Below are positions 7,928-27,148 of a stretch of DNA of 64,000 nt, in pieces. Every line of letters starts with the position of its first letter. Positions within the stretch are counted from its first letter, which is position 1. The DNA comes from Dehalococcoidia bacterium (lineage in GTDB: Bacteria; Chloroflexota; Dehalococcoidia; Bin125): positions 88,556 through 152,555 of the forward strand of contig JAJDYG010000040.1 in the NCBI GenBank assembly GCA_022822855.1, in the 5' to 3' direction. The notes under the pieces are model-generated. The model was not told the origin of the DNA, searched no databases, and worked only from the letters and a program-made list of their open reading frames with translations. The position numbers were made by a program, and so were the translations under genes.

Positions 7928-8770
7928 TTGAGTCGTTTGAGGGAGCGTCTGATGAGTACACCAATCCGCGTTCACGTCGTCGCCGGGGGATTTCCGCCGG
8001 GCAAGCATGCCGGACACGACATCGACTACGCGCGCATGCGCATTTTGATGGCCTTGCAATCGAACGAGAACGTCCACACGACCGTGAGCAGCGACTTCAC
8101 CGACTGCCACAAGTGGATCCGCGATGCGCACCTCTTGGTCTGCTACGTCGCCGGCCCGTTCGCGGACGAGTACCAGACCGGTGTGATCCGCGATTGGGTC
8201 GGCGACGGCGGACGCTGGCTGGCACTGCACGGCTCGTCGGGCGGGAAGGCGGAACGGATGGGTCGGGAGGACGGTCGCCGCCGACTGGTCAAGATGGACT
8301 ATCACGAGGCGCTGGGCGGGTTCTTCATGACCCATCCGCCGATCCGCGAGATGGACGTGAAGGTCGCCGACCACAATCATCCGCTGACCTACAACCTGCC
8401 CGCCAGCTTCCCGGTCCAGGATGAGCCCTACATGGTCGAGGTGATCCATTCCGACACGCAGGTGCTGCTGACGACCGAGGACATCGACTCGCCGCCTTAC
8501 GTGGATGAGATTTACGGCGGCGACCTGTCACTGCTGCCCGATGGCAAGTCGCACGCGCTCGGGTTCGCGCGCAAGGTCGGCGAGGGTGAAGTCGCGTACA
8601 TCTCGCCGGGACACTGTCATACGCCGTTGACCAATGGCCAGCAATCCGTTCACGAGAGCATCTCGCCTGACGGCACCGTGCCGCTGCATTTCCGCGGGCC
8701 CTGGGAGACCGAGCCGTACGAGCGGTTGCTCAAGAACGCGATCGATTGGGGCACCGGTGTCAACGGTTAG
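7928..8770 (+). CDS. ThuA-like (trehalose-utilisation) class-I glutamine-amidotransferase-fold protein
   Basis: 280 aa; IRVHVVAGGFPPGKHAGHDID, WLALHGSSGG, FFMTHPPI are ThuA-family features. The true start may be the second ATG (about 7952). Confidence 0.65.
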   Translation: MSRLRERLMSTPIRVHVVAGGFPPGKHAGHDIDYARMRILMALQSNENVHTTVSSDFTDCHKWIRDAHLLVCYVAGPFADEYQTGVIRDWVGDGGRWLALHGSSGGKAERMGREDGRRRLVKMDYHEALGGFFMTHPPIREMDVKVADHNHPLTYNLPASFPVQDEPYMVEVIHSDTQVLLTTEDIDSPPYVDEIYGGDLSLLPDGKSHALGFARKVGEGEVAYISPGHCHTPLTNGQQSVHESISPDGTVPLHFRGPWETEPYERLLKNAIDWGTGVNG

Positions 8771-10286: not shown

Positions 10287-10330
10287 CGACCAGATCCAAG
10301 CGACACGTCAGTCCCGAGAAAAACCTGACC

Positions 10331-11716
10331 ATGGCCGAACGCCTGGAGCGTGTCGATCAGGAGCGGGCCCATATCGACGCGTTCGACCGCGACCGCGAGC
10401 TGCAGCCCGGTCAGCTGACTCCGCGCGCTCGGATTGCGGCGCTGGTCGATGAGGACTCGTTCCTGGAAATCGGGGCGTTCGCCAAGAGTCAGCATCGCGA
10501 CGTGGCTGCGGAGACTCCAGCTGACGGGGTGATCACGGGCTACGCGGAGATCGATGAGCGGCGCGTCGTCGTGCTGGCCGAGGATCCGGTCGCGCTGGCT
10601 GCAACCGATGCGCAGGTCGGCAAGAACAAGCGCAACCGGATGATCTCGAACGCGATCTATCGTCGCTTGCCGATCGTCTACCTCGCCGACGGCACACCAG
10701 AGGAGTCGCCAGAGTTCGACATGCACCGGGGTTTCCTGCTCAGCCGGGTGGCTGATCAGCTTCCGGCTCGCGACATCGCCGAGCGCGAGGCGCCCTTGGT
10801 CACGGTCGCCTGCGGGATGTGCGCGGGGCAGAACAGTTCGCTGGCGGTGAGGTCGGACCTGCTCGTCGCGACCACGCATGCGCGCTTCGGAGCGTCCGAC
10901 GGATCTCCTGACGCCGTGGCCGACGTGGTGCTCGGGAGCGACGCCGAGGCCATCGCTGCGGCTCAGCGCTTTCTGAGCACGCTGCCGGAGGAGTTGGATA
11001 CGCCGCTCGAGCCGCTGACTTACAACCCCGCCGGACCGACGAACATTCTGCTCGACGAGTACATGGATGCGACGCCGGAGGAACAATTCGAGTCGATCTT
11101 CGACGGCGAAGGGGCGGTGTTGTTGACTGAGATCGAATCGAATTGTGTCGTCGGTCTGGGACGGATCGAGGGTTTCCCGGTCGCATTCGCGTTGACCGGC
11201 GGTTCCCCCCGCGCCTCGCTGACCACGACGGACATGAAGCGGATTGCGAAAGCCGCCTCGTGGAGCGCGGATTATCAGATCCCGTTCATCTCCACGCAGG
11301 ACACGCTCGGCTACGACCCCTCCGATGCAGCAACGGCGGAGTTCATGTTCGCCGCCGCCCGCGCCGTCGAGTCGTTGCGGGCCTCGCACGCTGCCAAGAT
11401 CACGATCATCACCGGCTGGGGTCACGCGCTCGGCGACTTCGCGCTCGGCGGCCTGGGCACCGGCTTCGATTTCATCTGGTCCTGGCCCTCGGCCCGACTG
11501 GCCGCGACCGATAGTCCCGGCTATCTGGCTCGCGACCCGGAGTCACCGCCCTCGGAAGGGCCCTGGGAGGCAGCGGAGTTGGGGTTGGTCTCGGAGATGA
11601 TCACGCCAGGGGATTTGCGAGAGTGGCTCGCTCGGGCGCTGCGATTGCTCGGACCCGGAAGGGCGCTGCCGGCCGCCCACTACGACCGCGGCCAGCAGAT
11701 CCACGACATGACATAG
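10331..11716 (+). CDS. Divergent carboxyltransferase-domain paralog (possible second CT subunit, or a non-catalytic partner)
   Basis: MAERLERVDQERAHIDAFDRDRELQPGQLTPRARIAALVDEDSFLEIG repeats the CT N-terminal pattern. The alternative GTG start at 10283 overlaps the upstream stop (GTGA). About 460-477 aa, with markedly diverged internal motifs. Confidence 0.6.
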   Translation: MAERLERVDQERAHIDAFDRDRELQPGQLTPRARIAALVDEDSFLEIGAFAKSQHRDVAAETPADGVITGYAEIDERRVVVLAEDPVALAATDAQVGKNKRNRMISNAIYRRLPIVYLADGTPEESPEFDMHRGFLLSRVADQLPARDIAEREAPLVTVACGMCAGQNSSLAVRSDLLVATTHARFGASDGSPDAVADVVLGSDAEAIAAAQRFLSTLPEELDTPLEPLTYNPAGPTNILLDEYMDATPEEQFESIFDGEGAVLLTEIESNCVVGLGRIEGFPVAFALTGGSPRASLTTTDMKRIAKAASWSADYQIPFISTQDTLGYDPSDAATAEFMFAAARAVESLRASHAAKITIITGWGHALGDFALGGLGTGFDFIWSWPSARLAATDSPGYLARDPESPPSEGPWEAAELGLVSEMITPGDLREWLARALRLLGPGRALPAAHYDRGQQIHDMT

Positions 11717-11783: not shown

Positions 11784-12608
11784 ATGACCTACACCGCCGT
11801 CGAGTTTGAGACCAACGGACCAATCGCCACGATCACGATGGATCGACCTGAGAAGCGCAACGCGCTCAACCACGCCCTGCTCGACGACCTGCTCGCCGCG
11901 CTGAACGAGGTCGCCGAGGACGACTCGCTCAAGGTCGCCATCCTGCGCGCCAACGGGCCAACCTTCAGCGCCGGCTATGACATCGACGGCAGCCCGTACA
12001 TCAATCCTCCCGACGGCGGGACGGAATGGAACATTGTCAACGGACACAAGCATCAGCGGATCATGCGCGGCATCTACGAGGCGATCTGGGACAACCCCAA
12101 GGTGATCATCGCCCAGATTCACGGTCACGCGATTGCTGGCGGGATGTACATCTCCATGCTCTGCGACCTCGTGGTCGCGGCAGAGGACGCCAAGATCGGC
12201 GAACCGTACATGCGTATGGGCGGCGCCAGTTCGATTCCGTTCTGGAGTTACCTAGTCGGACCGCGTCGAGCCAACGACATGCTTTTCACCGGCCGCGTGC
12301 TCTCGGGCAAGGAAGCCGAAGAGTGGGGTCTGGTCACGCGCAGCGTGCCCGCAGCGGAGCTGGACGAGACGGTGCAGGCGATGGCCCAGAGCGTCGCCGA
12401 AGCACCGCTGGCCAGTCTGCTGACCAAGAAGGAGATGTGGCACACGCAGGCGGACATGCTCGGCTGGGGCGCGCAGTTCCGCTACACGACCAGCCTCAAC
12501 TCGTGGCTTCGGATGGCTCCGCCGCCGCCCGACAGCCGAGGCGGCATGCGCGATTTCATGAACGAACGCAAAGCCCAGCAGGCACGCGGCGAGTCGACCG
12601 ATTACTAG
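11784..12608 (+). CDS. Enoyl-CoA hydratase/isomerase (crotonase) family protein
   Basis: IATITMDRPEKRNALN, KVAILRANGPTFSAGYDI and IAQIHGHAIAGGMYISMLCDLVVAAEDAKIG form the crotonase fold. Confidence 0.8.
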   Translation: MTYTAVEFETNGPIATITMDRPEKRNALNHALLDDLLAALNEVAEDDSLKVAILRANGPTFSAGYDIDGSPYINPPDGGTEWNIVNGHKHQRIMRGIYEAIWDNPKVIIAQIHGHAIAGGMYISMLCDLVVAAEDAKIGEPYMRMGGASSIPFWSYLVGPRRANDMLFTGRVLSGKEAEEWGLVTRSVPAAELDETVQAMAQSVAEAPLASLLTKKEMWHTQADMLGWGAQFRYTTSLNSWLRMAPPPPDSRGGMRDFMNERKAQQARGESTDY

Positions 12609-14873: not shown

Positions 14874-15062
14874 GGTCGACTCCTCCCCGTCAGGCTCGGA
14901 CCAGTGGAGTTGTGGCCGAGTCTAGGGCTATTCAGATTGGCTCCTTTGCCCTGCGCGGGCTGTCAACGAGCGGGATTCGGGCCGGCGCAGGGAAACTCAT
15001 CGAGAATGTTGGCCGAATCGCGCGAATCTGGCGCTGTGGGCTGGGAATTCGCGCTTCGGGAT

Positions 15063-15165
15063 GTCAGATTTGGTCAGAACCCGTCAGATTTTGTCGGGAC
15101 GAGGTCAGATGCGGGCGGGTTTCGTCGGCGCCCGGGCAGGTATCGCTGGGTGATGTCAGGTGGGT
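15063..15165. repeat. Cluster of four GTCAGRT(T)TTGTC-like direct repeats in the 500-nt leader of the phospho-lyase/kinase operon (putative operator array)
   Basis: ggatGTCAGATttgGTCAGaacccGTCAGATtttgtcgggacgagGTCAGATgcggg ... tgatGTCAGgtggg, read directly from the sequence. Confidence 0.3.
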
Positions 15166-15379
15166 TGGCGGGGTTCATAGTGCGCTCCTGGGTTGTTGGC
15201 CGTGGTTGGATATCGTTGATTGTATTCGCACGAACGTTCTTCTACGCGGTCGTGGTGTGTCGGGGACGACGGTCGCCAGACGGAGGGCAAGGCGGAGCGA
15301 TCGCCTCGGCGCGCCTGACGTGAACAGGCCCCGGGCGGCGGAGCTTGCATCCGTCGGGCGGAGCGCTCACAATCCCTGC

Positions 15380-16663
15380 ATGACTACTCCATCCACCCAA
15401 GACCTGCTCGCCCGCCGGGAACGGCTGCTCGGAGCGGGCGTCGCCACCTTCTACGAGAATCCCGTGCACATCGTGCGCGGCGAGGGCGTCTGGCTCTACG
15501 ACGCCGACGGCCGCCGTTATCTCGACCTCTACAACAACGTGCCCTGCGTCGGCCACGCGCATCCTCGCGTCGTCGAGGCGATGCAGCGCCAGACCGAGAC
15601 GCTCAATGTCCACTCGCGCTACCTGCACGAAGGCATCCTCGACTACGCCGAACACCTGACCTCGCTGCACGCCGATCACATCACGACGGCCGTGTTCACC
15701 TGCAGCGGCACGGAGGCGAACGAGGTCGCGATCCTGATGGCCCGGGCCGCGACCGGAGGCCGAGGTCTGATCTACACGCAGGCCGCCTATCACGGCAACT
15801 CGACCGAGGTGCGCAAGCTCTCGCGGTTGCGCGGCGACAACGAGCCCGAGTTCCGCTCGATTCCCGTGCCGCAGCGCTACCGGCCGATCGAGGATGGCCT
15901 TGACGACAGCGCGCTGACCGATGCGTATCTGTCTCGGTTGCAGGCCGAGATCGATGGTTTCGCCGCCGATGGGATTCCCTTTGCGGGGATGATGGCCTGC
16001 TCGATCCTCGCCAACGAAGGATTGCCCGACATCCCGCCTGGTTTCATGGGGCGCGCGGCCGATCTGGTGCGCGAAGCGGGCGGCGTGTTCATCGCCGACG
16101 AGGTGCAGGCCGGCTTCGCCCGCTCGGGCAACTGGTGGGGCTACGAGACGACGGGGGTGACGCCGGACATCGTCAGCATGGGCAAGCCGATGGGCAACGG
16201 CCTCCCGCTCGCCGGCGTGGTTGCGTCGAGGGAGATGGTCGACACCTTCCGCCAGAGAACCCGCTACTTCAACACTTTCGCCTCGAGCCCGCTGCAAGCC
16301 GCCGTCGGACAGGCCGTGCTCGACGTGATCGAGGACGAGGGGCTGGTCGAGAGTGTGGCCGATGTCGGCGGATATCTGATCGACAACCTGCGCTCGTTGC
16401 AGGAAAGCTGCGAGCCGATGTCGGATGTGCGCGGGCATGGGTTGTTCATCGGCATGGAGTGGGTCAAGGATCGCGAGAGCAAGGAGCCGGATCCCGAGGG
16501 CGCGGAAGTGATCGTCAATCGCCTTCGCGATACGGGATTCCTCATGGGCCGCGCCGGTGAACACGGCAATGTGCTCAAGGTGCGTCCACCGCTGGTCCTT
16601 AAGCGCGAGCAGGCCGATATGTTCCTCGAAGCGTTCGAGACAGCGATCGCCGAACCGACCTGA
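15380..16663 (+). CDS. Class-III (ornithine/GABA-type) PLP-dependent aminotransferase-fold enzyme; possibly a phospho-lyase (AGXT2L-like) given the adjacent kinase.
   Basis: Start at ATG 15380 (MTTPSTQDLLARRERLL...). Class-III AT features: LYDADGRRYLDLYNNVPCVGHAHPRVVEAM, CSGTEANEVAILMARAATGG, IADEVQAGFARSGNWWGYE, SMGKPMGNGLPLAGV. The 468 nt upstream of the ORF-track start are rejected as leader. Confidence 0.8.
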   Translation: MTTPSTQDLLARRERLLGAGVATFYENPVHIVRGEGVWLYDADGRRYLDLYNNVPCVGHAHPRVVEAMQRQTETLNVHSRYLHEGILDYAEHLTSLHADHITTAVFTCSGTEANEVAILMARAATGGRGLIYTQAAYHGNSTEVRKLSRLRGDNEPEFRSIPVPQRYRPIEDGLDDSALTDAYLSRLQAEIDGFAADGIPFAGMMACSILANEGLPDIPPGFMGRAADLVREAGGVFIADEVQAGFARSGNWWGYETTGVTPDIVSMGKPMGNGLPLAGVVASREMVDTFRQRTRYFNTFASSPLQAAVGQAVLDVIEDEGLVESVADVGGYLIDNLRSLQESCEPMSDVRGHGLFIGMEWVKDRESKEPDPEGAEVIVNRLRDTGFLMGRAGEHGNVLKVRPPLVLKREQADMFLEAFETAIAEPT

Positions 16664-16667
16664 TTCG

Positions 16668-17669
16668 ATGCCCGAGCCGACGAATCTCAGCGACGCCGAT
16701 CTGTATGCGATCGCGCGTCAATCCCTGCCGCGCTGGGGACTGAGACCGGACGCGATCGAGTTGGTCTCACGCAGCGAGAACACGGTCTTTCGGCTCGACA
16801 TGCCCGATGGACAGCGCTACGCGCTGCGGATTCACCGCCCGGGCTATCACACGCTGCCCGAGCTAGAGTCGGAGCTGCTCTGGACCCAGGCGCTCAACGA
16901 AGCTGGCATTCGCGTGCCGGTCGGCGTGCAAACCCTGGACGGTCCCGGATACGCCACGATCGCGACGCCGGACGGCGAGTCGAGCCGCGCCGTCGGACTG
17001 GTCAACTGGCTCGATGGCGAGCTGCTGAGTTCGGTGATCGAAGCGGAAACGGATGAGCCAACGATCGTCGAGCACTTTCGTCAGATCGGACCGGTGCTCG
17101 CCGCCATGAACAACCAGGCCAGCGATTGGACCCCTCCGGCCGGGTTCACGCGTCATGCCTTCGATGTCCCCGGCTATGTCGGCGAGTCGCCATTCTGGGG
17201 CCGGTTCTGGGATGTACCGCCGCTCACGGCGGCACAGCGTGAACTGCTCGCCGGAGCGCGCGAGCAGATTCGTCAAACGCTGAACGAGTACGGCAAGGAT
17301 CGCGGCACGTACTCGATGATTCATGCCGACTTGCACGCACACAACATTCTGATCGACCCGTCTGGCGCGTTGCAGGCGTTCGACTTCGACGACGCCGGAT
17401 TCGGCTGGCATCAGTACGACCTGGCGGTTGTGTTGTTCGGACTCGAGGAACTGCCGTACTTCGACGCGATCGCCGATGCAATCGTGGCCGGTTATCGCTC
17501 GATTCGGCCCTTCAGCGACGAAGCGCTGTCGCTGCTGCCGCTGTTCCTGTTGATTCGCCGGCTGGTGCTGATCTCCTGGCAGTGGGATCGGCCGGAGTTG
17601 GGCCGGCGAAACGGACTGGACGCCTACATCGCGGACGCCTGCGAGCGGGTCGAGGACTTTGCCTTCTAG
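16668..17669 (+). CDS. Aminoglycoside-phosphotransferase (APH)-fold small-molecule kinase (hydroxylysine-kinase / homoserine-kinase-II-like)
   Basis: ATG at 16668 lies 4 nt after the aminotransferase stop (translational coupling). IHADLHAHNILIDPSGALQAFDFDDAGFGWHQYDLA is the APH catalytic/Brenner motif. Confidence 0.75.
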   Translation: MPEPTNLSDADLYAIARQSLPRWGLRPDAIELVSRSENTVFRLDMPDGQRYALRIHRPGYHTLPELESELLWTQALNEAGIRVPVGVQTLDGPGYATIATPDGESSRAVGLVNWLDGELLSSVIEAETDEPTIVEHFRQIGPVLAAMNNQASDWTPPAGFTRHAFDVPGYVGESPFWGRFWDVPPLTAAQRELLAGAREQIRQTLNEYGKDRGTYSMIHADLHAHNILIDPSGALQAFDFDDAGFGWHQYDLAVVLFGLEELPYFDAIADAIVAGYRSIRPFSDEALSLLPLFLLIRRLVLISWQWDRPELGRRNGLDAYIADACERVEDFAF

Positions 17670-17691
17670 GACGCCGATCTTCGCGCCCCGC

Positions 17692-17739
17692 TTGACATCT
17701 ACCGACGGCCTGTGTAGTTTACCGGCAGGTTAGATAACC
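17692..17739 (+). promoter_or_regulatory. Sigma-70-like promoter (TTGACA-17nt-TAGTTT) with a downstream inverted repeat GGTTAGATAACC, a candidate ArsR operator upstream of arsR
   Basis: TTGACA at 17692-17697 and TAGTTT at 17715-17720 with a 17-nt spacer. The palindrome ggttagataacc lies at 17728-17739, just upstream of the GTG start at 17755. Confidence 0.35.
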
Positions 17740-17754
17740 GATTGGTGAAATATA

Positions 17755-18120
17755 GTGCCGACCGCCGCTCCAACCCGCGATCCGCTCAGCGCCACCTTCG
17801 CGGCGCTGGCCGATCCTACCCGGCGTGCGATCCTCACGACCCTCGCCGGTGGCGAGGCGTCGGTGACCGAGCTGGCTGAGCCGTTCGACATGACCCTGCC
17901 GGCCGTTTCCAAGCACCTCAAGGTCCTCGAGCGCGCCGGACTAATTGAACGCAGCAGCCGGGCTCAATGGCGGCCCTGCCGTCTCTCGCCGGAACCGCTC
18001 AAGGAAGTCTCCGACTGGGTCGAGCCCTACCGGAAGATCTGGGAAGAACGCCTCGATCGTCTCGACGACTACCTGAGCGACCTGAAGAGCGGGATCAACA
18101 CCGGTCCACCGGCCGAGTAA
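17755..18120 (+). CDS. ArsR/SmtB-family metalloregulatory transcriptional repressor
   Basis: LADPTRRAILTTLAGGEASVTELAEPFDMTLPAVSKHLKVLERAGLIE is the winged-HTH ArsR signature. Confidence 0.8.
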   Translation: MPTAAPTRDPLSATFAALADPTRRAILTTLAGGEASVTELAEPFDMTLPAVSKHLKVLERAGLIERSSRAQWRPCRLSPEPLKEVSDWVEPYRKIWEERLDRLDDYLSDLKSGINTGPPAE

Positions 18121-18156
18121 TCGATACAGCAGCAGACCAGAGGACAGGAGCCTGAG

Positions 18157-18609
18157 ATGACCGCAGCCGAGAGCATCATCACCAACGACGACCGAGGCGT
18201 ACAGCTCGAGCGCATCTTCGATGCGCCGCCGGCGCTCGTCTGGCAAGCCTGGACCGAGGCCGAGCACTTCGCCCGCTGGTACGGTCCCGAGGGCTTCAGC
18301 GTTCCGACTTGCGAGTTCGATTTCCGCGTCGGCGGCGAGTACTCGCTGGTGATGCGCTCCCCGGACGGCTGGGAGATGCGCAACTTCGGCGTGTTCAAAG
18401 AGATCGTCCCGTCGGAGCGCCTGGTCGCCACGATGTCTGCCGACATGCACGGCGAGACAACCGTGACCGTCGAACTGGAAGACCTCTGCGACGGGCGGAC
18501 CAGGTTGACCATGCGCCAGGATGGCTGGCCCGATCCGCAGATGGCCGAGGGCGCCGGCGGCGGCTGGTCGCAGGCCCTCGAGAAGCTGGCGACTGCACTC
18601 GCTGAGTAG
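18157..18609 (+). CDS. SRPBCC-superfamily protein (Aha1/AHSA1-like), commonly co-encoded with ArsR regulators
   Basis: 150 aa; LERIFDAPPALVWQAWTEAEHFARWYGPEGF...FRVGGEY is the AHSA1-domain pattern. Confidence 0.8.
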   Translation: MTAAESIITNDDRGVQLERIFDAPPALVWQAWTEAEHFARWYGPEGFSVPTCEFDFRVGGEYSLVMRSPDGWEMRNFGVFKEIVPSERLVATMSADMHGETTVTVELEDLCDGRTRLTMRQDGWPDPQMAEGAGGGWSQALEKLATALAE

Positions 18610-18680
18610 ACGAGTCCTGTCGTCAATGGGCCGCGGGATTCTGGCTAGGCTATGGATATCTGCAGAGAGGACCCCCCGAG

Positions 18681-18896
18681 ATGTGCTGGCGAGATCGGAT
18701 CGAGCAGAATCCCGAAGTCCTGGTTGGCAAGCCGGTGATCAAGGGCACCCGCTTGTCCGTGGAGTTCATCATCGAGCTTCTCGCTGACGAATGGACGATC
18801 GAAGAGATCCTCGACTCCTGGACACACATCACACGTCAAGACATTCTTGCCTGTTTGCATTACGCAGGTGAGCGTGTCAAGCAACCGCTCAGCTAG
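18681..18896 (+). CDS. DUF433-domain protein (putative antitoxin-like partner)
   Basis: 71 aa; PVIKGTRLSVEFIIELLADEWTIEEILDSWTHITRQDILACLHYA matches the DUF433 core. Confidence 0.6.
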   Translation: MCWRDRIEQNPEVLVGKPVIKGTRLSVEFIIELLADEWTIEEILDSWTHITRQDILACLHYAGERVKQPLS

Positions 18897-18914
18897 TGGT
18901 CGTGCGACGATTAA

Positions 18915-19274
18915 GTGGCGCGATTCCTCGCTGATGAAAATCTGTGGCCACGGGCGGTTGATGCGCTCAGAGCATTGGGGCACGATGTTGTCTGGGTACG
19001 GGATGATTCTCCCGGAATCTCAGACGAGGAGGTGCTTGAGCGGGCGCAAACGGAGGCACGTGCCGTCATCACATCCGACAAGGGCTTTGGCGATCTTGTC
19101 TTCGTCAGGCAGCTGCCCGCGGAGCATGGAGTGATTCTGCTGCGGGCGCGTCGCTCGCAAGCCGACCGTACGCAGGCGTTGATCAATGCGATAGGCAGTC
19201 GCCAACCCTGGCGTCACGTGTTCGCTGCAGTGGACGGCGAGCGCGTCAGGATCTCATCGATACCTCGACGATGA
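18915..19274 (+). CDS. DUF5615-family (PIN-like fold) protein, putative toxin partner of the DUF433 protein
   Basis: GTG start 18 nt after the DUF433 stop. RFLADENLWPRAVDALRALGHDVVWV...AVITSDKGFGDL is typical of the DUF5615 partner of DUF433. Confidence 0.55.
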   Translation: MARFLADENLWPRAVDALRALGHDVVWVRDDSPGISDEEVLERAQTEARAVITSDKGFGDLVFVRQLPAEHGVILLRARRSQADRTQALINAIGSRQPWRHVFAAVDGERVRISSIPRR

Positions 19275-19358
19275 CCGGAGCCAACAACGCTCTTGGGACG
19301 GTGATGCTGGCCGTGAGGCTCTATTGCGCTTCTATTCTGTGTCCGAAAGAGGACTCCA

Positions 19359-22300
19359 ATGCCCCCTAGCAAGCTGTTGATCGCCAATCGCGGCGAGATT
19401 GCCATCCGAGTGATTCGCGCCGCGCGCGAACTTGGCATCGGCTCGGTCGCGATCCACTCGCAGGACGATGCGAACTCGCTCCACGTCCGCTTGGCCGACG
19501 AGGCTGTCGCGCTGGACGGCGTTGGCGCTCGGGCGTACCTCGATGTCGAGGCAGTCATCGGCGCGGCCCTCGACTCCGGCGCCCACGCGCTGCACCCCGG
19601 CTATGGATTCCTGGCCGAGAGTGCGGACCTGTCGCGTCGATGCGACGAATCCGGAATCACCTTCGTCGGTCCGACGCCGGAGTCGCTAGAACTGTTCGGC
19701 GACAAAGCCCGGGCTCGGGCGCTCGCGGTTGAGCTGGATGTCCCCGTCCTCCCCGGCACCGAGGCTGCGGTAGACCTCGCAGAGGCGACTGAGTTCTACC
19801 GCTCCCTGGGCGACGGCGGCGCGATGATACTCAAGGCGATTGCCGGAGGCGGCGGACGCGGAATGCGCGTGGTCACGGCTGAAGAGCAGATCGCCGAGGC
19901 CTTCGAGCGCTGTCAATCGGAGGCTGCGACGGCGTTCGGCAACGGAGATCTGCTGGTCGAGCGGCTGATGTCACGCGCCAGGCACGTTGAGGTGCAGATC
20001 ATCGGGGACGGCACGGGAGCGGTCTCGCACATCGGCGAGCGCGAGTGCAGCCTCCAACGCCGACATCAGAAGGTGGTCGAGTGGGCGCCCAGCCCGTCGA
20101 TCTCCGACGAGACCCGCGAGCGCCTGACCGCCGCGGCCGTGCGTCTGGCGTCGTCGGACAACTACCGCAGCCTGGGCACGTTCGAGTTCCTGGTCAACGC
20201 CGACGACGAATCCGATCTCGCCTTCATCGAAGCCAATCCGCGCCTGCAGGTCGAGCACACGGTGACCGAAGAAGTGACCGGCGTCGACCTGGTCCGGGCG
20301 CAGCTTCGCATCGCTGGTGGAGAGTCGCTGCAGGCGGTTGGGTTGGCTCAGTCCGAAGTTCCGCCAGCCCGCGGTTTCGCAATCCAGGCGCGAGTCAACA
20401 TGGAGCGGATGGAGCCGAACGGCGACGTGCGTCCCTCGGGCGGGATGTTGACGACGTTCGAGCCTCCATCGGGTCCTGGAGTCCGCGTGGACACATACGG
20501 CTATCCCGGTTACACCACGAATCCCAACTTCGATTCCCTGTTGGGAAAGGTGATCGCCTACTCGGCTTCCGCGGACTTCCGCGATGTGATTGGCAGGACC
20601 CGACGAGCGCTGGCCGAGTTCCGGATTGAAGGCGTCGACGCCAATCTCTCCTTCCTCGAGCAGTCCCTGTCCCACGACGACTTCAGCTCCGGCGAGATTT
20701 ACACCCGCTGGGTCGACGACCACGTCGCGGAACTCACCGCAGAGCCGAAGATCGAAGCTCCGGTTCAGAACGGCACTTCCGACTCGCAGGCTGGACTGGC
20801 TGGAGCGCAACTCGACACGCTCGATCCGCTTGCCGGACTGAACTACTTCCGCGAGGGCTCCGGTACACGAGCCCAGCAGGGCGTCGCCACCGTGACGCCG
20901 GGGACGCAGCCCGCTCCAAACATCGTTGGCCCTCCGGGTACGGAACCGATCCCCTCGCCGCTGCAGGGCACGATCATCCAGATCCTGGTCGAGGAAGGCG
21001 ACGCGGTCCGCGAAGGCCAGCAGATGTTCGTGATGGACTCCATGAAGATGGAGCACGTCATCAACTCCGACATCGGCGGCTTCTTGCGCCAGCTCACCGT
21101 CGCAGTCGGCGACGTCGTCTACGAGGGACACCCGCTCGCCTTCATTGAGGAAGCTGACGTTGGCGACGCGATCACGGAAGAGCAAGAAGAGATCGACCTC
21201 GACTACATCCGTCCCGACCTGCAGAAACTGTTCGACAATCTCGACGCCGGCAAGGACGAGAATCGTCAGCCCTGGGTCGAGCGTCGGCACGCCAAGGGCA
21301 AAATGACCCAGCGGGAAAGCCTGGCCGAGCTGGTCGACGACGGTAGCTGGGTCGAAATGGGCGAACTCGTGCTTCCGGCCCGGCATCGGATCATGTCCTT
21401 CGAGGAGATGCGAGTTCGCGCCCCCGCCGACGGGATGATCACCGGGATCGGCACGGTCAACGGAAACCTGTTCGAGGAGCAGCGCGCCACGACGCTCGTG
21501 GCGATGTACGACGAGACCGTTTGGGCCGGCACCCAGGGCATGATGGGCCACCAGAAGACCGACCGCGTGATCAAGTTCGCCGACGAGCAGGCCACGCCGT
21601 TGATCGTCTGGGCCGAAGGCGCCGGCGGGCGCTCCGGCGACACCGATTTCTCCGATATCTCGTCGGCCGGACAGTGGGTGCCGACCTACGACATGATGGC
21701 CCGAATCAGCGGCACAGTGCCGATGATCGGGATCACGGCCGGCCGCACTTTCGCCGGTAATGCCTCGATCCTGGGTATCACCGACTGCATCATCGCCACT
21801 CGCGACGCCAACATCGGCATGGGCGGCCCGGCGACGATCGAAGGCGGCGGGCTCGGACTGTTCACGCCCGAGGAGATCGGGCCGATGTCCGATCTCGGAC
21901 CGGCCGGCAGCGTCGACATCCTCGTCGAAGACGAACACGAAGCGATCGCGGCGGCGAAGCAGTACCTCTCGTATTTCCAGGGCTCGATTCCAAGCTGGGA
22001 CTGCGTTGACCAGCGGCACCTGCGCCACGCGATTCCCGAGAACCGCAAGCGGCCGTTCAGCGTGCGTAAGGTGATCGAGCAGATGGCCGACATCGACTCG
22101 GTGCTGGAACTGCGCGGCGAGTTCGGCGTCGGGATCATCACTTCGTTGATCCGGATCGAAGGTCACCCGATCGGCGTGATCGCGAACAACAACCAGCACC
22201 TGGGCGGAGCGGTCGACAGCGACGGGGCAGACAAGCTCTGCCGCTTTGCCCAGCTCTGCGACTGCTTCAACATTCCCATCCTTGTGCTGGTCGACACGAC

Positions 22301-22769
22301 CGGCATGATGGTCGGTCCCGACATCGAGCGCACGGGCCTCGCCCGCAAGTGCAACAACGTCTTCGTCACCCTGGCCAACGCGCAGTCGCCGCGATTCACG
22401 ATCATCCTGCGCAAGTCGTACGGCCTGGCCGCGCAGGCGATGATGACCGGCAGCTCGCGAGCACCGCTCTTCGCCCTCGCCTGGCCGACGGCCGAGCTGG
22501 GCGGCATGAATCTCGAAGCGGCCGTCCGCCTCGGCAACCGGGCCGAGCTGGAGGCGATCGAGGACATTGAGGAGCGTGCCGCCCGCTATGAGGCGCTGGT
22601 CGCCAACGCCTACTGGAGAGGTAACGCGATCAACTCGGCCTCGGTCCACGAGAACGACGGCGTGATTGATCCGGCCGACACCCGCCGCTGGATCGTGCGC
22701 GGCCTGATGGCCTGCGAGAACCCCGAGCCGATCCGCAGAGGCCGTCGTCCCAACATCGACACCTGGTAA
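19359..22769 (+). CDS. Single-chain multidomain biotin-dependent acyl-CoA carboxylase (BC - BCCP - CT fusion; long-chain acyl-CoA carboxylase LCC-like)
   Basis: 1136 aa. The N-terminus KLLIANRGEIAIRVIRAAR... through the BC C-terminal region (EFRIEGVDANLSFL) is an ATP-grasp biotin carboxylase. The biotinyl domain with MDSMKMEHV carries the AMKM-type biotinyl-lysine motif. The C-terminal ~520 aa (RRHAKGKMTQRESLAELVDDGSW...) is a carboxyltransferase domain. The RBS aagaggac precedes the ATG. Confidence 0.85.
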   Translation: MPPSKLLIANRGEIAIRVIRAARELGIGSVAIHSQDDANSLHVRLADEAVALDGVGARAYLDVEAVIGAALDSGAHALHPGYGFLAESADLSRRCDESGITFVGPTPESLELFGDKARARALAVELDVPVLPGTEAAVDLAEATEFYRSLGDGGAMILKAIAGGGGRGMRVVTAEEQIAEAFERCQSEAATAFGNGDLLVERLMSRARHVEVQIIGDGTGAVSHIGERECSLQRRHQKVVEWAPSPSISDETRERLTAAAVRLASSDNYRSLGTFEFLVNADDESDLAFIEANPRLQVEHTVTEEVTGVDLVRAQLRIAGGESLQAVGLAQSEVPPARGFAIQARVNMERMEPNGDVRPSGGMLTTFEPPSGPGVRVDTYGYPGYTTNPNFDSLLGKVIAYSASADFRDVIGRTRRALAEFRIEGVDANLSFLEQSLSHDDFSSGEIYTRWVDDHVAELTAEPKIEAPVQNGTSDSQAGLAGAQLDTLDPLAGLNYFREGSGTRAQQGVATVTPGTQPAPNIVGPPGTEPIPSPLQGTIIQILVEEGDAVREGQQMFVMDSMKMEHVINSDIGGFLRQLTVAVGDVVYEGHPLAFIEEADVGDAITEEQEEIDLDYIRPDLQKLFDNLDAGKDENRQPWVERRHAKGKMTQRESLAELVDDGSWVEMGELVLPARHRIMSFEEMRVRAPADGMITGIGTVNGNLFEEQRATTLVAMYDETVWAGTQGMMGHQKTDRVIKFADEQATPLIVWAEGAGGRSGDTDFSDISSAGQWVPTYDMMARISGTVPMIGITAGRTFAGNASILGITDCIIATRDANIGMGGPATIEGGGLGLFTPEEIGPMSDLGPAGSVDILVEDEHEAIAAAKQYLSYFQGSIPSWDCVDQRHLRHAIPENRKRPFSVRKVIEQMADIDSVLELRGEFGVGIITSLIRIEGHPIGVIANNNQHLGGAVDSDGADKLCRFAQLCDCFNIPILVLVDTTGMMVGPDIERTGLARKCNNVFVTLANAQSPRFTIILRKSYGLAAQAMMTGSSRAPLFALAWPTAELGGMNLEAAVRLGNRAELEAIEDIEERAARYEALVANAYWRGNAINSASVHENDGVIDPADTRRWIVRGLMACENPEPIRRGRRPNIDTW

Positions 22770-22840
22770 GTCCGATGATTCCCGACTGACCGTAAACTCA
22801 GCAGCAAGACTGGGACTGCTTGAACGTGAGGAACAGACCA

Positions 22841-24010
22841 ATGGCCGAGCAAGAGTTGGGCGATGCCGTCATCCGTCGGCAGATCGGTGGCATGCCGGTC
22901 CCCGAGTTTTCCGAGACGGCCTGGACGGCACCGCCGCCGTTGTCCGAAGCGAGGGTTGCGGTCGTCACCTCGGCGGCGCTGCACCCTCGAGACGGCGAGG
23001 GATTCACCGTCAATGACGCCAGCTATCGCGCGCTTGACCATGACCAACGCCAGTTGGTGCTGGGACACTGGAGCCCGAACTTCGACCGTTCCGCCTTCGG
23101 CATCGACTACAACGTCGTCTATCCGCTGGCCCGTCTGGACGAGTTGGTGGAGCAGGGCGTCATCGGTTCCGTCGCGTCAAAGCACTACTCGTTTGCCGGC
23201 AATCAGCCCGACGATGTAGCCACGATCCGGCACGACTCCGCTCCCGCCTGCGCGGCCGAACTTAAGGCCGACGGAGTGGATGTGGTCTTCCTGACACCGG
23301 TTTGACCGCTTTGCACGCGTACCGTGTGTACGCTCGCCCACGTCTTCGAGGCCGCCGGTCTGGCCACCGTGACCATCTCAGCGATTCGCCAGGTCGCCGA
23401 ACGAATGCGGCCGCCGCGCGTCCTGCACGGCGAGTTCCCGCTCGGCAGGCCGCTGGGCAAACCCAACGACCCGGAGTTCCAGCACGACGTGCTCCGCCGC
23501 GCACTCTCATTGCTTGAGTGCGATTCCGGCCCGGTACTTGAGGATTATCCGGTGGAGGTCGTCGGCGAAGAGGAGCCATTAGGCTGCACGGTGCCGCCGC
23601 GCTTCGATCCCGAGTTGGCGCCCGCCGTCGACGAGGCGCGCGGACTGCGCAAGGCATACGATCGCGCAGTGGCTCGCCGTGGGATCAGCGATGTCGGCAA
23701 GGCGATCGACGCCGACGGCGTGCCAGCTGCGCTGGACGTGCTGCAGAACATCGTGAACGGCACACCCTGGAAGGAAGCCGGCATCCCCGGCGGCCACACG
23801 ACCGCGCTGGCCAACGACATTCGCGCCTACTACGAAGAGGCAGCTCTTGAACTGGCCGGTGCGCCGAACGCCGGCGGCCGCCAGGCCGAAGCCTGGTTCT
23901 TCGAGCGCACCGAGGCCGGCAAGCTCATCCTCGATGTCCGCAAGGCGCTCGCCTCCCAGGGTGCGCCCCAGCCGGTCTGGTTCTACATGGCGCCCATGCA
24001 CCGCAACTGA
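22841..24010 (+). CDS. Glycine/sarcosine/betaine/proline reductase selenoprotein B (GrdB/PrdB)-family protein with a putative selenocysteine encoded by the in-frame TGA at 23303-23305
   Basis: ORF-track entries 22820..23305 and 23324..24010 are in the same frame, separated only by a TGA. Read-through gives ...ADGVDVVFLTPV-U-PLCTRTVCTLAHVFEAAGLATVTISAIRQVAERMRPPRVLHGEFPLGRP. This aligns, from memory, with the GrdB Sec region ...DAVILTSTUGTCTRCGATMVKEIERAGIPVVH..., a UxxCTRxxC redox motif. A GAGGAAC RBS precedes the ATG at 22841. Confidence 0.65.
23306..23340 (+). promoter_or_regulatory. SECIS-like mRNA hairpin immediately 3' of the in-frame UGA
   Basis: GCGTAC(23317-23322)-CGTGT-GTACGC(23328-23333): a 6-bp perfect stem with a 5-nt G-containing loop, starting 12 nt after the UGA. 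This spacing is characteristic of bacterial SECIS elements. Confidence 0.4.
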
Positions 24011-24039
24011 GCAAAGGCCGAGCCGACTTGCTGCTAGTG

Positions 24040-25215
24040 CTACCAGAACGGGGCCCGAGCCTCGTCGCCCAGCAGCACACGTGCCGCAGCCGCATAGTTG
24101 GACGCTCCCAGCACGACGTGCTGATTCATCGCGTGGATGTCGCGCAGCCTTCGATCGAGCGTGGAGCGCTCCGCGTAGAGCGCGGTTGAGCCGGCGACGG
24201 CGTACAGCCGCTCGACCACGTTCTGGCTCTCCTGGTGAACGTGCGTGATCGCGAGGCGCAGGTTGACCCGTTTCGCGTCCGACATCTCGCCGGTCTCGCA
24301 GACTTCCTGCCAGGCAGCGTCGGAGGCCGACAGTGCATACGCACGGCAGGCGGCGATCTGCGCAGCCGTCTCACCCAGCGTGGCCTGCGTGAGCGGGTCG
24401 TTGCGCAGTGAGCCGCGAAAAGCGGTGCGATCACGGGCGATCTCCATCACCTCGTCATGGGCCGCCTGGACCAGTCCCAGCGCCACGCCGAGGTGCTTGG
24501 GCAACAGCCACGCCGGATGACGCAGCGGGTCGCCCAGGACCGAGCGATTCGAGGGTCTGGGCGGCACGCTTCTCTCTTCGGGAATAAAGAGATCGCTCAC
24601 TTCGACATCATGGCTTCCGGTGCCGCGCATGCCGCCGGTCTTCCAGGTGTCGAGGATGGTGACTTCGTCGCGGTGAGCGACCAGCCTGATGAACGGCGGC
24701 CCGTCCGCTGGCGCGTCCTCGCCCGACAGCCGGCAGTTCATCTGCACCCAGTCGGCGTGGGTGATGCCGCTCATGTAGGGCCAGCGACCTGTTGCGACGT
24801 AACCGCCTTCAACCCGACGAGCCGTGCCCGGAGGAAAGCCCGAGCCGCAGGTGGCGGCGTCAATATCGGAGTACATCGCCCGGGCCACGTTCGGGTCGAG
24901 TTCACGCGACAGCAAGCCTCCGTCGCAGCCGATCATCACGCACCAGGCCGTCGAGGCATCGGCTCTGGCCAGCTCGGCGATGAACAGGATCTGGGTCACC
25001 GGGTCAGCGTCGTGTCCGCCCAGCCAGCGAGGCTGGAGCAACCGGAACGCGCCGATGCTCCTCAGGAGGTCAACGATCTGCCTCGGAAGCTGTCGGCCCG
25101 CCTCAATCTCCTCGGCCGCCTCGCGAATCTGAGGCGCGATCGAGCGTGCCGACTCAAGCAGAGCCGCTCGTTCGTCGGGAGAGGCGCCGAACGACGTGCT
25201 CATGAATGGACGCAA
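24040..25215 (-). CDS. Acyl-CoA dehydrogenase-fold flavoprotein (ACAD type-2 / flavin monooxygenase-like)
   Basis: 391 aa; the architecture, including TGGMRGTGSHDVEVSDLFIPEE and the C-terminal helical domain, matches the ACAD fold. Confidence 0.7.
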   Translation of the reverse strand: MRPFMSTSFGASPDERAALLESARSIAPQIREAAEEIEAGRQLPRQIVDLLRSIGAFRLLQPRWLGGHDADPVTQILFIAELARADASTAWCVMIGCDGGLLSRELDPNVARAMYSDIDAATCGSGFPPGTARRVEGGYVATGRWPYMSGITHADWVQMNCRLSGEDAPADGPPFIRLVAHRDEVTILDTWKTGGMRGTGSHDVEVSDLFIPEERSVPPRPSNRSVLGDPLRHPAWLLPKHLGVALGLVQAAHDEVMEIARDRTAFRGSLRNDPLTQATLGETAAQIAACRAYALSASDAAWQEVCETGEMSDAKRVNLRLAITHVHQESQNVVERLYAVAGSTALYAERSTLDRRLRDIHAMNQHVVLGASNYAAAARVLLGDEARAPFW

Positions 25216-25256
25216 GGGTCGGCAACGCGCAGCCGAAGTGGTTCGACGCTAGCCGC

Positions 25257-25697
25257 CTACAGCTCCATCGGCTCGCCCTGGGCGACCTGCTGAGGATCGG
25301 TCTTCCAGATGTCCGAGCCGTCGACGTAGAGTTCGACCCCGTTGCCGTCCGGATCGTTCAGGTACAGCGACTTCGAGACCACGTGGTCAATCGTGGCGAA
25401 CACCTTGACGCCGGCCGCTTCGAGTTCGTCCCGTGCCTCGCGCAGCTCGTCCAGCGTGTCGCCGATGCAGAACGCCAGGTGATACAGGCCCGGCGCCTTG
25501 GGGTCGGCGGTTTCAGGGCCTTCCTCGCCAACCTCGAGCAGCGCGAGGTCGTGGTGGTTGCCGAGCGTGTAGAAGGTCATCGGCATCTGCTCGTGCCGAG
25601 CGGCGAGTTCCATGCCGAGGATGTCGCCGTAGAACTGCTCCGAGCGTTCGCGGTTGCGGACCTTGATGACTGCGTGACCGAGTTCCTTGACCTTCAT
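25257..25697 (-). CDS. VOC-family (glyoxalase/bleomycin-resistance/extradiol-dioxygenase fold) protein
   Basis: 146 aa; LGHAVIKVRNRERSEQFYGDILGMEL...HLAF...GNGVELY matches the VOC fold. Confidence 0.75.
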   Translation of the reverse strand: MKVKELGHAVIKVRNRERSEQFYGDILGMELAARHEQMPMTFYTLGNHHDLALLEVGEEGPETADPKAPGLYHLAFCIGDTLDELREARDELEAAGVKVFATIDHVVSKSLYLNDPDGNGVELYVDGSDIWKTDPQQVAQGEPMEL

Positions 25698-25838
25698 CGG
25701 TCTCCCCTTCGTGGCGATAGCCGCTGGGATGCGGCCTCTGTCTGCGCCTCATTCTATGCCTGCCCGAACGCGCCCTGTGATTTCTTATCTTGGCAATCAG
25801 CTTCGGCAAGCGAACGGACACATCGGGAGGCGAACGAA

Positions 25839-26591
25839 ATGGACGAGATTGGCTATTCGGTCGACGGGCACATCGCATCGATCCAACTGCTCCGGCCGGA
25901 GAAGCTGAACGCGATGACCGACGAGATGTATCAGGCGATCGGCGACGCATTCAAACAGGCGGACTCCGATCCCCAGGTGCGTTGCGTGGTGATCAGCGGC
26001 TCGGGCCGAGCCTTCACATCGGGGCATGACCTGCTCGAGTTCGGAGAGCGCCAGGCCTGGAAGCCGTGGTCGGCGGAACGCTTCGACAACGGTCTCGAGA
26101 CCGCTAAGCCCGTGATCGCCGCGATCAACGGCTACTGCCTCGCTGGCGGACTTGAGCTCGCTCTCTACTGCGACATCCGCATTTGCGACACCACCGCCCA
26201 GTTCGGCTGCCCCGAGCCGCGTTGGGGCATCCTCCACGGCTATGGAGCGCTGCGCACGCCGGGCCTGGTCGGCACGTCCGACGCCATGCGCCTGCTGCTG
26301 ACGGGCGAGTTCATCGACGCCGAAGAAGCCCTGCGCATCGGTCTCGTCAGCCAGGTCGTCGAGCCGCAGGACCTGCTCTCGACCGCCAACGACATGGCCG
26401 CAAAGATCGCCGTCAACAGCCCCCTCGCAATCCGCCTGACCAAGGAACTCGCCCGCCGAGGCCGCGACATGTCCCTCGCCGACGGTCTGCGTCTCTACCA
26501 GGAGTACTCACGGCTCGCCTTCAGCTCCGACGACGCCCGAGAAGGCACCCGAGCCTTCGCCGAGCGCCGCGACCCCGAGTACCAGGGCTGA
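25839..26591 (+). CDS. Enoyl-CoA hydratase/isomerase family protein (second crotonase paralog)
   Basis: Start at ATG 25839 after a GGGAGG RBS. IASIQLLRPEKLNAM, VISGSGRAFTSGHDL, AAINGYCLAGGLELALYCDIRIC. The upstream 25206..25838 part of the ORF-track entry is rejected. Confidence 0.8.
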   Translation: MDEIGYSVDGHIASIQLLRPEKLNAMTDEMYQAIGDAFKQADSDPQVRCVVISGSGRAFTSGHDLLEFGERQAWKPWSAERFDNGLETAKPVIAAINGYCLAGGLELALYCDIRICDTTAQFGCPEPRWGILHGYGALRTPGLVGTSDAMRLLLTGEFIDAEEALRIGLVSQVVEPQDLLSTANDMAAKIAVNSPLAIRLTKELARRGRDMSLADGLRLYQEYSRLAFSSDDAREGTRAFAERRDPEYQG

Positions 26592-26624: not shown

Positions 26625-26858
26625 ATGCTCAAGCCAACCACGACCGACCCACGCGCAGCACTCATCAACTGGGAAATCCTGAGTTCAGAGTTTCCGCCCA
26701 TCGACGAGTGGGACGAAGACGACTGGGACGATGCAGCGCTCGCGACGCTTGTTCACTACTACCTGGAAGAAGACCGGAAGAGCGGCAAGGTCCAACCAAC
26801 CATTTCACTCGAAGAAGTCCTTGCAAAACGCGGACTCACGCTCGACGACCTCAAGTAG
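26625..26858 (+). CDS. Small acidic protein, putative antitoxin of the downstream RelE/ParE toxin
   Basis: 77 aa; acidic (DEWDEDDWDD) with a C-terminal helical segment ISLEEVLAKRGLTLDDLK. It sits immediately upstream of the RelE/ParE gene with a 5-nt gap. Confidence 0.4.
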   Translation: MLKPTTTDPRAALINWEILSSEFPPIDEWDEDDWDDAALATLVHYYLEEDRKSGKVQPTISLEEVLAKRGLTLDDLK

Positions 26859-26863
26859 AGCCT

Positions 26864-27148
26864 GTGCCTCCACGGGTCACGTTCGCCGACCGCGCCAATC
26901 AGGCGCTTGATCGGCTCCCGATCGACACCCAGTTCAGGGTGCTGGATCGAATCACTCGGTTGCAGGCAGCTCCGCGAGGACCAGGTTCGACGAGATTGGA
27001 AGACTTCGACGATGTCTGGAGGGTCAGGGTTGGCGACTATCGCATCGCCTACACCCTCCACGACGATGACAACCTGATTCGAATCGAACAGGTCGGACAT
27101 CGCCGTGACTTCTATCGACGGCTTGGTCGCCTCTCCCACTTGCGCTAA
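26864..27148 (+). CDS. RelE/ParE-family type II toxin
   Basis: GTG start at 26864. VGDYRIAYTLHDDDNLIRIEQVGHRRDFY is the RelE/ParE signature. It lies in the frame of the long spurious ORF 26183..27148. Confidence 0.7.
   Translation: MPPRVTFADRANQALDRLPIDTQFRVLDRITRLQAAPRGPGSTRLEDFDDVWRVRVGDYRIAYTLHDDDNLIRIEQVGHRRDFYRRLGRLSHLR

Follow-up and report, generated by a model that had tools for sequence, protein, structure and literature searches.

Within the 64,000-nucleotide stretch of contig JAJDYG010000040.1 analysed here (the window), the gene at 19359..22769 (+ strand) very probably encodes a single-chain, biotin-dependent acyl-CoA carboxylase that belongs to the LCC family (short for long-chain acyl-CoA carboxylase), of the type represented by Protein Data Bank (PDB) entry 4RCN. 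Judging from sequence and fold comparison, we put the probability of this reading at about 0.88. Biotin carboxylase (BC), biotin carboxyl carrier protein (BCCP) and carboxyltransferase (CT) domains are joined in one chain of 1136 amino acids (aa), and the protein is an ordinary member of a described and widespread family. The 4RCN-type enzyme is reportedly the one studied by Tran and colleagues in 2015.

A complete gene encoding three fused domains

The gene is complete: the listing of open reading frames (ORFs) and the translation gave 1136 aa plus TAA, with an ATG start and zero internal stops over 1136 codons. The first-pass annotation of the window had described a single polypeptide of this length, and neither a stop nor a frameshift was found in 19359..22769. 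It had also placed an ATP-grasp BC domain, a biotinyl domain with the lysine of an MKM motif and a complete CT domain in this one ORF, and our Pfam search recovered all three of the corresponding families, CPSase_L_D2, Biotin_lipoyl and Carboxyl_trans, on the + strand.

The BC (ATP-grasp) domain occupies aa 1-460 (19359..20738; Pfam, AlphaFold2 and Foldseek) and is made up of Biotin_carb_N (aa 4-110, Pfam 3e-39), CPSase_L_D2, the ATP-grasp part (aa 115-326, 1e-60), and Biotin_carb_C (aa 343-453, 1e-27). It is followed by a linker at aa 461-528 (20739..20942), delimited with the 4RCN alignment and the AlphaFold2 model, and by the BCCP (biotinyl) domain at aa 529-598 (20943..21152), in which Biotin_lipoyl matches aa 531-595 (Pfam 9e-14). 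The biotin attachment lysine, K563 (codon 21045-21047), was read from the sequence in the motif D-S-M-K-M-E-H, and its biotinylation is predicted. The CT domain, with its N- and C-terminal crotonase-fold halves, spans aa 613-1136 (21195..22766; Pfam, PDB search and Foldseek). Carboxyl_trans matches it at aa 643-1118 with an E-value of 3.5e-70, covering profile positions 2-477 of 493, and three CT motifs stand out by their conservation: A-E-G-A-G-G-R-S-G-D (aa 752-761), D-T-T-G-M-M-V-G-P (aa 979-987) and R-K-S-Y-G-L-A-A-Q (aa 1018-1026). Pfam found no biotin carboxylase-carboxyltransferase interaction (BT) domain and no central domain of the acetyl-CoA carboxylase (ACC) type on either side of BCCP, towards BC or towards CT; the BCCP and CT matches are only about 45 aa apart.

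The residues expected of a working enzyme are preserved in an alignment of 93 homologs that are 55-95% identical. In the BC domain, K116, K159, H209, E211, K238, E276, E291, N293, R295, Q297, V298, E299 and R345 are invariant; we assign their catalytic roles by motif correspondence with the catalytic set of Escherichia coli BC and its numbering. In the BCCP domain K563, M564, E565 and H566 are invariant and position 562 is M or L, and in the CT domain the same holds for E753, G754, G756, R758, D979, T980, G982, M984, G986, P987, R1018, Y1021 and L1023. An AlphaFold2 monomer built on this alignment showed three confidently modelled domains, with a mean predicted local distance difference test (pLDDT) value of 82.5, a predicted template-modelling score (pTM) of 0.50 and a pLDDT of about 90 in the BC domain. 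No folded module was seen between BC and BCCP, where the model has a disordered linker with a single short helix.

A codon comparison with two syntenic relatives gave ratios of non-synonymous to synonymous substitution (dN/dS) of 0.074 and 0.077 over the full length, which indicates that the gene is expressed and under purifying selection. A Shine-Dalgarno-like GAAAGAGGA was read from the sequence at 19345..19353 (+ strand), 5 nt before the ATG. A consensus scan of 17600-25400 found 0 sigma-70-like promoter sites and 2 terminator-like sites, fewer than expected from shuffled sequence, in a high-GC, non-model host that the consensus may not fit. In an Rfam scan of 17000-26000 (E<=1) no riboswitch or leader was matched, and ARAGORN reported no tRNA, including tRNA-Sec, in the 64-kb window.

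We also considered that a frameshift error might have joined separate alpha and beta subunit genes, or that the gene might be decaying. No point in support of this was found, and we regard its probability as negligible. The BC-BCCP-CT fusion is present in 93/93 aligned homologs and in the 81 loci that we retrieved (80 from a scan of a genome collection, plus a close relative, L001), and is therefore not an assembly artefact: the same continuous ORF recurs in independent assemblies at 55-95% identity and in loci of many phyla. The dN/dS of about 0.07 over the full length speaks against artefact or decay, and the linker itself holds invariant residues, which argues against artefactual joining.

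Placement in the LCC family

The best PDB sequence match of the carboxylase was 4RCN, titled 'long-chain acyl-CoA carboxylase' (E 3.2e-281), and the alignment was collinear, with query aa 4-461 on residues 3-468 of chain A and aa 511-1114 on residues 472-1071. The next matches were 5FIF (CT) and 5H80 (BC), which belong to a single-chain bacterial carboxylase. In agreement with these data, a Foldseek search of the PDB with the AlphaFold2 model placed 4rcn_B first, over 1126 aligned columns at 40% identity. The CT domain superimposed on 5FIF with a template-modelling score (TMt) of 0.92 and the BC domain on 5H80 with 0.93, BC-domain structures overall reaching 0.93-0.95.

We also searched the PDB with the CT domain alone. 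It scored 513.6 bits against 4RCN and 504.6 bits against 5FIF, followed by a putative methylmalonyl-CoA decarboxylase alpha (MMCD-alpha), transcarboxylase 12S and PccB (200-210 bits), AccD4, AccD5 and AccD6 (151-186 bits), and the beta subunits of geranyl-CoA carboxylase (GCC) and methylcrotonyl-CoA carboxylase (MCC; 133-145 bits). A neighbour-joining tree of CT domains agreed with the bit scores: the carboxylase nests within the family to which homologs from Mycobacterium, Pseudomonas and Bradyrhizobium also belong, far from the one PccB-like outgroup. The first-pass annotation had recognised the architecture of the LCC class, and this assignment is upheld by the full-length 4RCN match and by a CT domain that groups with the single-chain carboxylases and not with propionyl-CoA carboxylase (PCC), MCC or GCC.

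The highest NCBIfam scores of the protein, however, belong to pyruvate carboxylase and urea carboxylase models, and databases name some homologs 'Pyruvate carboxylase/Acetyl-CoA carboxylase' or 'carbamoyl-phosphate synthase large subunit'. Both identities were tried and rejected: of the two pyruvate carboxylase models, one gave 590 bits (cut-off 965) and the other 522 bits (cut-off 1114), and the urea carboxylase model gave 495 bits (cut-off 1304), in each case over the BC part (aa 4-461) only. The homolog names are misleading because these models match just that part. In its C-terminal half the protein has a Carboxyl_trans domain of the crotonase fold, not the carboxyltransferase of pyruvate carboxylase or the allophanate-forming domains of urea carboxylase. 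A eukaryote-type ACC would have a central domain, which is missing here, and at least 1800 aa rather than 1136; human ACC1 aligns at 17% identity. That the protein is any of these three enzymes is thus hardly conceivable. One practical result is a corrected and sharper annotation: in public sources, homologs go by such labels as ATP-grasp protein, pyruvate carboxylase or the large subunit of carbamoyl-phosphate synthase, whereas the protein itself is of the LCC type.

Several observations nevertheless weigh against the LCC assignment or limit what follows from it. Identity to the characterised enzyme MapLCC (4RCN) is just about 40%, the CT tree was built by a rough distance method and has just one outgroup, and we identified no biochemical data for the carboxylase or for members of the subclade that shares its linker motif (see below). 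The gene neighbourhood, which is conserved in very close relatives only, gives no firm pathway assignment. Because the CT residues T981, A1024 and Q1026 are specific to its clade, a preference for long-chain substrates should not be assumed from family membership.

Distribution and paralogs

LCC-type enzymes have been described as "rare" (PMC6491548), and the first-pass annotation had started from the premise that the fused architecture is unusual among bacteria. This premise turned out to be overstated. When we scanned contigs from a representative genome of each GTDB species, at least 599 stretches (among the 600 matches listed) were confirmed as BC-BCCP-CT relatives; they come from many phyla, and the architecture is common rather than exceptional. 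The 80 loci kept from the scan belong to Chloroflexota, Alpha-, Beta-, Gamma- and "Delta"-proteobacteria, Actinomycetota, Acidobacteriota and Myxococcota, and nearly all of them match over the full BC-BCCP-CT span, a few being cut by contig ends. The closest relatives of the carboxylase are metagenomic proteins of 72-95% identity, and those from metagenome-assembled genomes of Chloroflexi/Dehalococcoidia are 58-76% identical.

In several related genomes two or more copies lie on one contig (P0009/P0045, P0003/P0089 and P0062/P0086), with an identity of about 59% between such paralogs (e.g. P0009/P0045 and P0003/P0089). The supposedly "rare" single-chain carboxylase is therefore widespread, and it has multiplied in Chloroflexi/Dehalococcoidia-like genomes that are rich in oxidative catabolic genes.

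Predicted reaction and acyl-CoA specificity

By analogy with characterised biotin-dependent carboxylases, the reaction would proceed as follows. A biotin protein ligase would attach biotin to K563 of the BCCP domain, and the N-terminal ATP-grasp BC domain would carboxylate it using MgATP and bicarbonate. The whole BCCP domain would then swing on its flexible linkers to the CT active site, a movement described for LCC and related enzymes in PMC4673880 and PMC4833862. There the CT domain would pass the carboxyl group to the alpha-carbon of an acyl-CoA, yielding a 2-carboxyacyl-CoA (alkylmalonyl-CoA). We infer this chemistry, and in particular the alpha-carbon regiochemistry, because the CT domain is nearer to those of PCC, 12S and MMCD than to those of the gamma-carboxylating enzymes MCC and GCC. 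By analogy with 4RCN, the protein most likely works as a homo-oligomer (hexamer), with cooperation between the BC, BCCP and CT domains of different chains.

The ortholog group of the carboxylase (23 sequences at least 70% identical) was compared with 70 sequences of the paralog group. Four CT positions, within or beside the catalytic motifs, are fixed in the ortholog group. W751 is H or I in the 70 paralog-group sequences. T981, within D-T-T-G-M-M, is replaced by Pro in the paralogs, 4RCN, 5FIF and the other aligned CT domains. A1024 is G in the paralogs, MapLCC and 5FIF, and Q1026 is L, M or I in the paralogs, Met in MapLCC and Gln in 5FIF. We take Q1026 to be equivalent to the specificity residue D422 of PccB, with the register inferred from the R-K-x-Y-G-G/L motif. 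Taken together, the substitutions in the CT motifs suggest sub-functionalisation.

An enzyme of the LCC fold might accordingly carboxylate another acyl-CoA, be it short, branched, alicyclic or functionalised, that arises in a lineage-specific catabolic route, and so have acquired a new specificity. We consider this possible, at somewhat less than even odds. It is favoured by the clade-fixed changes at W751, T981, A1024 and Q1026, by the presence of two or more paralogs of about 59% identity per contig, which again suggests sub-functionalisation, and by neighbours that are monooxygenases, VOC, SDR, enoyl-CoA hydratase (ECH), SnoaL and amidase genes rather than fatty-acid genes. It is weakened by the shallow synteny of those neighbours and by the fact that the substitutions were placed by motif. 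Moreover, according to the summary of Tran et al. in PMC6491548, characterised LCCs are promiscuous: they take C2-C16 acyl-CoAs at similar kcat, with a Km that is 350 times smaller for palmitoyl-CoA than for acetyl-CoA. The motif changes therefore need not alter specificity. The earlier statement that the substrate cannot be read from the sequence is supported by these data. If these substitutions and the linker motif described below prove functional, they would help to show what the paralogs carboxylate, a point of interest for how uncultured bacteria break down unusual organic acids.

A housekeeping role, in which the enzyme would act as an acetyl-/propionyl-CoA carboxylase and supply malonyl-CoA for fatty-acid synthesis, appears improbable. 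LCC enzymes do turn over acetyl- and propionyl-CoA (PMC6491548), and no gene for a BC/BCCP alpha subunit was seen in the 64-kb window, though two CT-only genes lie there. Yet this observation covers the 64-kb window, and an accABCD set may lie elsewhere. The ACC that is essential in Saccharopolyspora erythraea is another enzyme, multidomain and eukaryote-like, and SACE_3154, the LCC ortholog of this species, is assigned to a different CT group (PMC6491548). Multiple paralogs and catabolic surroundings also oppose a single essential role.

A conserved motif in the BC-BCCP linker

The linker between the BC and BCCP domains is about 50 aa longer than that of 4RCN: the alignment passes from aa 461 to aa 511 of the query while the 4RCN chain passes from 468 to 472. 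AlphaFold2 gave it a pLDDT below 50 at aa 463-485 and 496-523. Within this stretch lies a conserved linear motif, AGLAGAQLDTLDPLAGLNYFREGSGTR, at aa 478-504 (20790..20870, + strand), which emerged from the alignment of 93 homologs. D489, P490, L494, R498 and G500 are invariant there, A481, G482, L491, A492 and F497 are at least 90% conserved, and the short helix of the model is predicted at aa 492-499.

The core motif, A-G-x-x-x-D-x-x-D-P-L-A with D-P-[L/A]-A at its end, was found in 41/78 full-length homologs, and on the rough CT tree the sequences that bear it form a crown group. The representatives from Mycobacterium, Pseudomonas and Bradyrhizobium do not carry it and branch outside that group; the three LCCs that Tran and colleagues examined reportedly come from these genera or from relatives of them. 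A search of the representative genomes with the linker plus BCCP (aa 474-600) returned mostly fragments from contig ends, and in this imperfect test no stand-alone alpha subunit carrying the motif was seen among the matches; Pfam was run on six of them, and each fitted as a part of the BC-BCCP-CT fusion. The best match to a CT sequence transcribed from the 5FIF alignment was just 66% identical. On the AlphaFold2 monomer the motif showed no confident docking (pLDDT below 50 around it).

Based on these sequence patterns, we tentatively propose that a large crown subclade of the LCC family gained a docking helix in the linker, which would either tether BC or BCCP to another domain in trans, standing in for the 'hook' of the missing BT domain, or recruit a partner or regulator, and that the ortholog group of the carboxylase additionally changed its acyl-CoA specificity. 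We think this combined proposal rather unlikely to hold as a whole. The subclade so defined may extend over Chloroflexi, many Proteobacteria, Acidobacteria and Myxococcota. Its helix might be marked by the core A-G-x-x-x-D-x-x-D-P-L-A-x-L, extended in the present protein to ...N-Y-F-R-E-G-x-G-T-R. If the proposal were true, the organisation or regulation of the holoenzyme would differ from that of 4RCN, and if the linker motif and the CT substitutions are functional, they would provide a handle on how domain-swapped holoenzymes assemble.

Gene neighbourhood

Upstream of the carboxylase lie amidase and EthD genes (both - strand), a class-III aminotransferase (14912-16663, +) whose listed ORF overlaps the following APH-family kinase (16557-17669, +), an ArsR-type regulator and an AHSA1/SRPBCC protein (both +), a DUF433 protein (18681-18896, +) and a DUF5615/PIN-like (Mut7-C) protein (18915-19274, +). 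The aminotransferase and kinase pair is conserved upstream of the carboxylase in the loci L001, L082 and L083; as their homologs in L001 have 427 and 333 aa, the true starts of both ORFs are probably later than listed. The DUF433 and DUF5615 genes form an apparent toxin-antitoxin pair in the 750-bp gap before the carboxylase, and a DUF433 gene is called at the equivalent place in L001.

Downstream, a GrdB/PrdB-like ORF with an in-frame TGA (22841-24010, +) is followed by a gene for an HsaA-like flavin monooxygenase subunit (24040-25215, -; 150 bits, below the equivalog cut-off), which is paired with a VOC/glyoxalase gene (25257-25697, -). Next comes an ECH gene (+), for which the mechanical ORF of 461 aa (25206-26591) matches ECH only at aa 222-460. 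With its N-terminal part this ORF runs across the oppositely oriented glyoxalase gene, and the real start is probably near 25836, because the homologs in L001 and L082 have 250 aa. A small ORF (26625-26858, +) and a ParE-family toxin gene (about 26855-27148, +; Pfam 2e-10) make up a second, putative toxin-antitoxin pair between the ECH gene and a SnoaL gene (+), beyond which are an SDR gene and a second VOC gene (both -) and a luciferase-like monooxygenase gene (+).

The gene order is kept in L001, with a carboxylase 89% identical to the present one, and in L082 (85% identical), except that the GrdB/PrdB-like gene is missing from the latter. In L084, with a carboxylase 73% identical, the neighbours are unrelated (a CoA-transferase, an ECH/3HCDH protein and a peptide ABC transporter). 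A tblastn search with 15 neighbour proteins against the 81 loci found sporadic co-occurrence, with the ECH in 9, the SDR in 13 and the GrdB-like protein in 2 of them; without L001, that is, in the 80 scan loci, the counts were 8, 12 and 1 (L051, from Myxococcota). A conserved operon as a clue to the substrate was rejected, as the order kept at 85-89% identity is lost at 73%.

The first-pass annotation had further suggested a locus for lipid or acyl-CoA remodelling, based on a selenoprotein B-like gene and an 'ACAD-fold flavoprotein' next to the carboxylase. This proposal fared less well: the link to the selenoprotein B-like gene is not conserved, the gene being missing from L082 and near the carboxylase in 1/80 scan loci, and the flavoprotein is encoded on the opposite strand, its best score being that of an HsaA-type flavin monooxygenase and not of an acyl-CoA dehydrogenase. 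As the surroundings are mostly catabolic or oxidative, a role in degrading some acyl-CoA intermediate fits better than housekeeping fatty-acid synthesis.

Two further groups of genes in the window deserve description. The GrdB/PrdB-like ORF is open in one frame apart from a single TGA at 23303-23305, within the motif V-U-P-L-C, and its best NCBIfam model is PrdB (122 bits against a cut-off of 300). The position of the TGA and the U-x-x-C spacing are repeated in L001 (11526-12695), and a Myxococcota homolog of 35% identity in L051 (4380-5243) has its TGA at the same position and with the same spacing (A-P-V-TGA-P-D-C). Between the window and L001, the flanks differ by wobble changes, but some 40 nt directly following the TGA hardly vary; a small hairpin (23312-23330) lies within this conserved stretch. 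From these patterns the TGA looks like a genuine selenocysteine codon. The two CT-only genes are found farther upstream. The first encodes a complete PccB/AccD-like CT (8634-10286, +; 248 bits to 1VRG) and the second a divergent CT paralog matching mainly in its N-terminal half (10283-11716, +); an ECH gene follows at 11784-12608 (+). The CT-only genes are in tandem and overlap, with no BC/BCCP alpha-subunit gene nearby, and by sequence they resemble a heteromeric CT pair whose biotin carboxylase and carrier would have to be encoded elsewhere.

Comparison with known systems

Among known enzymes, MapLCC (4RCN) offers the closest comparison. Like the window protein, it has the order BC-BCCP-CT in one chain of about 1100 aa, lacks BT and central domains, and shares the CT motifs E-G-x-G-G-R-x-G-D, D-T-x-G-x-M-V-G-P and R-K-x-Y-G-L. 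In contrast, the linker of the window protein is about 50 aa longer and contains the D-P-L-A...L..F-R.G motif that is missing in 4RCN, and MapLCC has P, G and M where the window protein has T981, A1024 and Q1026. MapLCC is also actinobacterial, whereas the window protein comes from a Chloroflexi/Dehalococcoidia-like genome.

The carboxylase of 5FIF (CT) and 5H80 (BC) is presumably that of Deinococcus radiodurans, the PDB titles giving 'single-chain bacterial carboxylase' only. It resembles the window protein at 46-48% identity (CT 504.6 bits and TMt 0.92, BC TMt 0.93) and shares with it the Gln equivalent to Q1026. Unlike the window protein, it has P and G at the positions of T981 and A1024, and its structures are those of isolated domains.

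SACE_3154 of S. erythraea and the Pseudomonas LCC orthologs are likewise small multidomain carboxylases, with a 'group III' CT (PMC6491548), and the homologs from Pseudomonas, Streptomyces and Nocardia belong to the same CT clade as the window protein. These SACE_3154/Pseudomonas-type lineages nonetheless have no linker motif and fall outside the crown group that bears it.

PccB (1XNV), the 12S transcarboxylase (1ON3) and MMCD-alpha (1X0U) share the CT fold and, presumably, carboxyl transfer to the alpha-carbon, and are the next-best CT matches. PCC-type enzymes differ in having separate alpha and beta subunits with a BT domain on alpha, and in the CT comparison they reach less than half the LCC score. 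The mycobacterial LCC complex AccA3/AccD4/AccD5/AccE5 (PDB 9YX2, PMC13012033) has the name and the BC and CT folds in common with the present family, but it is put together from separate subunits as a hetero-oligomer; that the two share a name is a coincidence, and the window protein is no member of this complex. Finally, SACE_4237 and eukaryotic ACC are also single-chain BC-BCCP-CT enzymes, but they have a large central domain and a BT domain and form dimers, and the eukaryote-type multidomain ACC is thought to be the product of an independent fusion event (PMC6491548).

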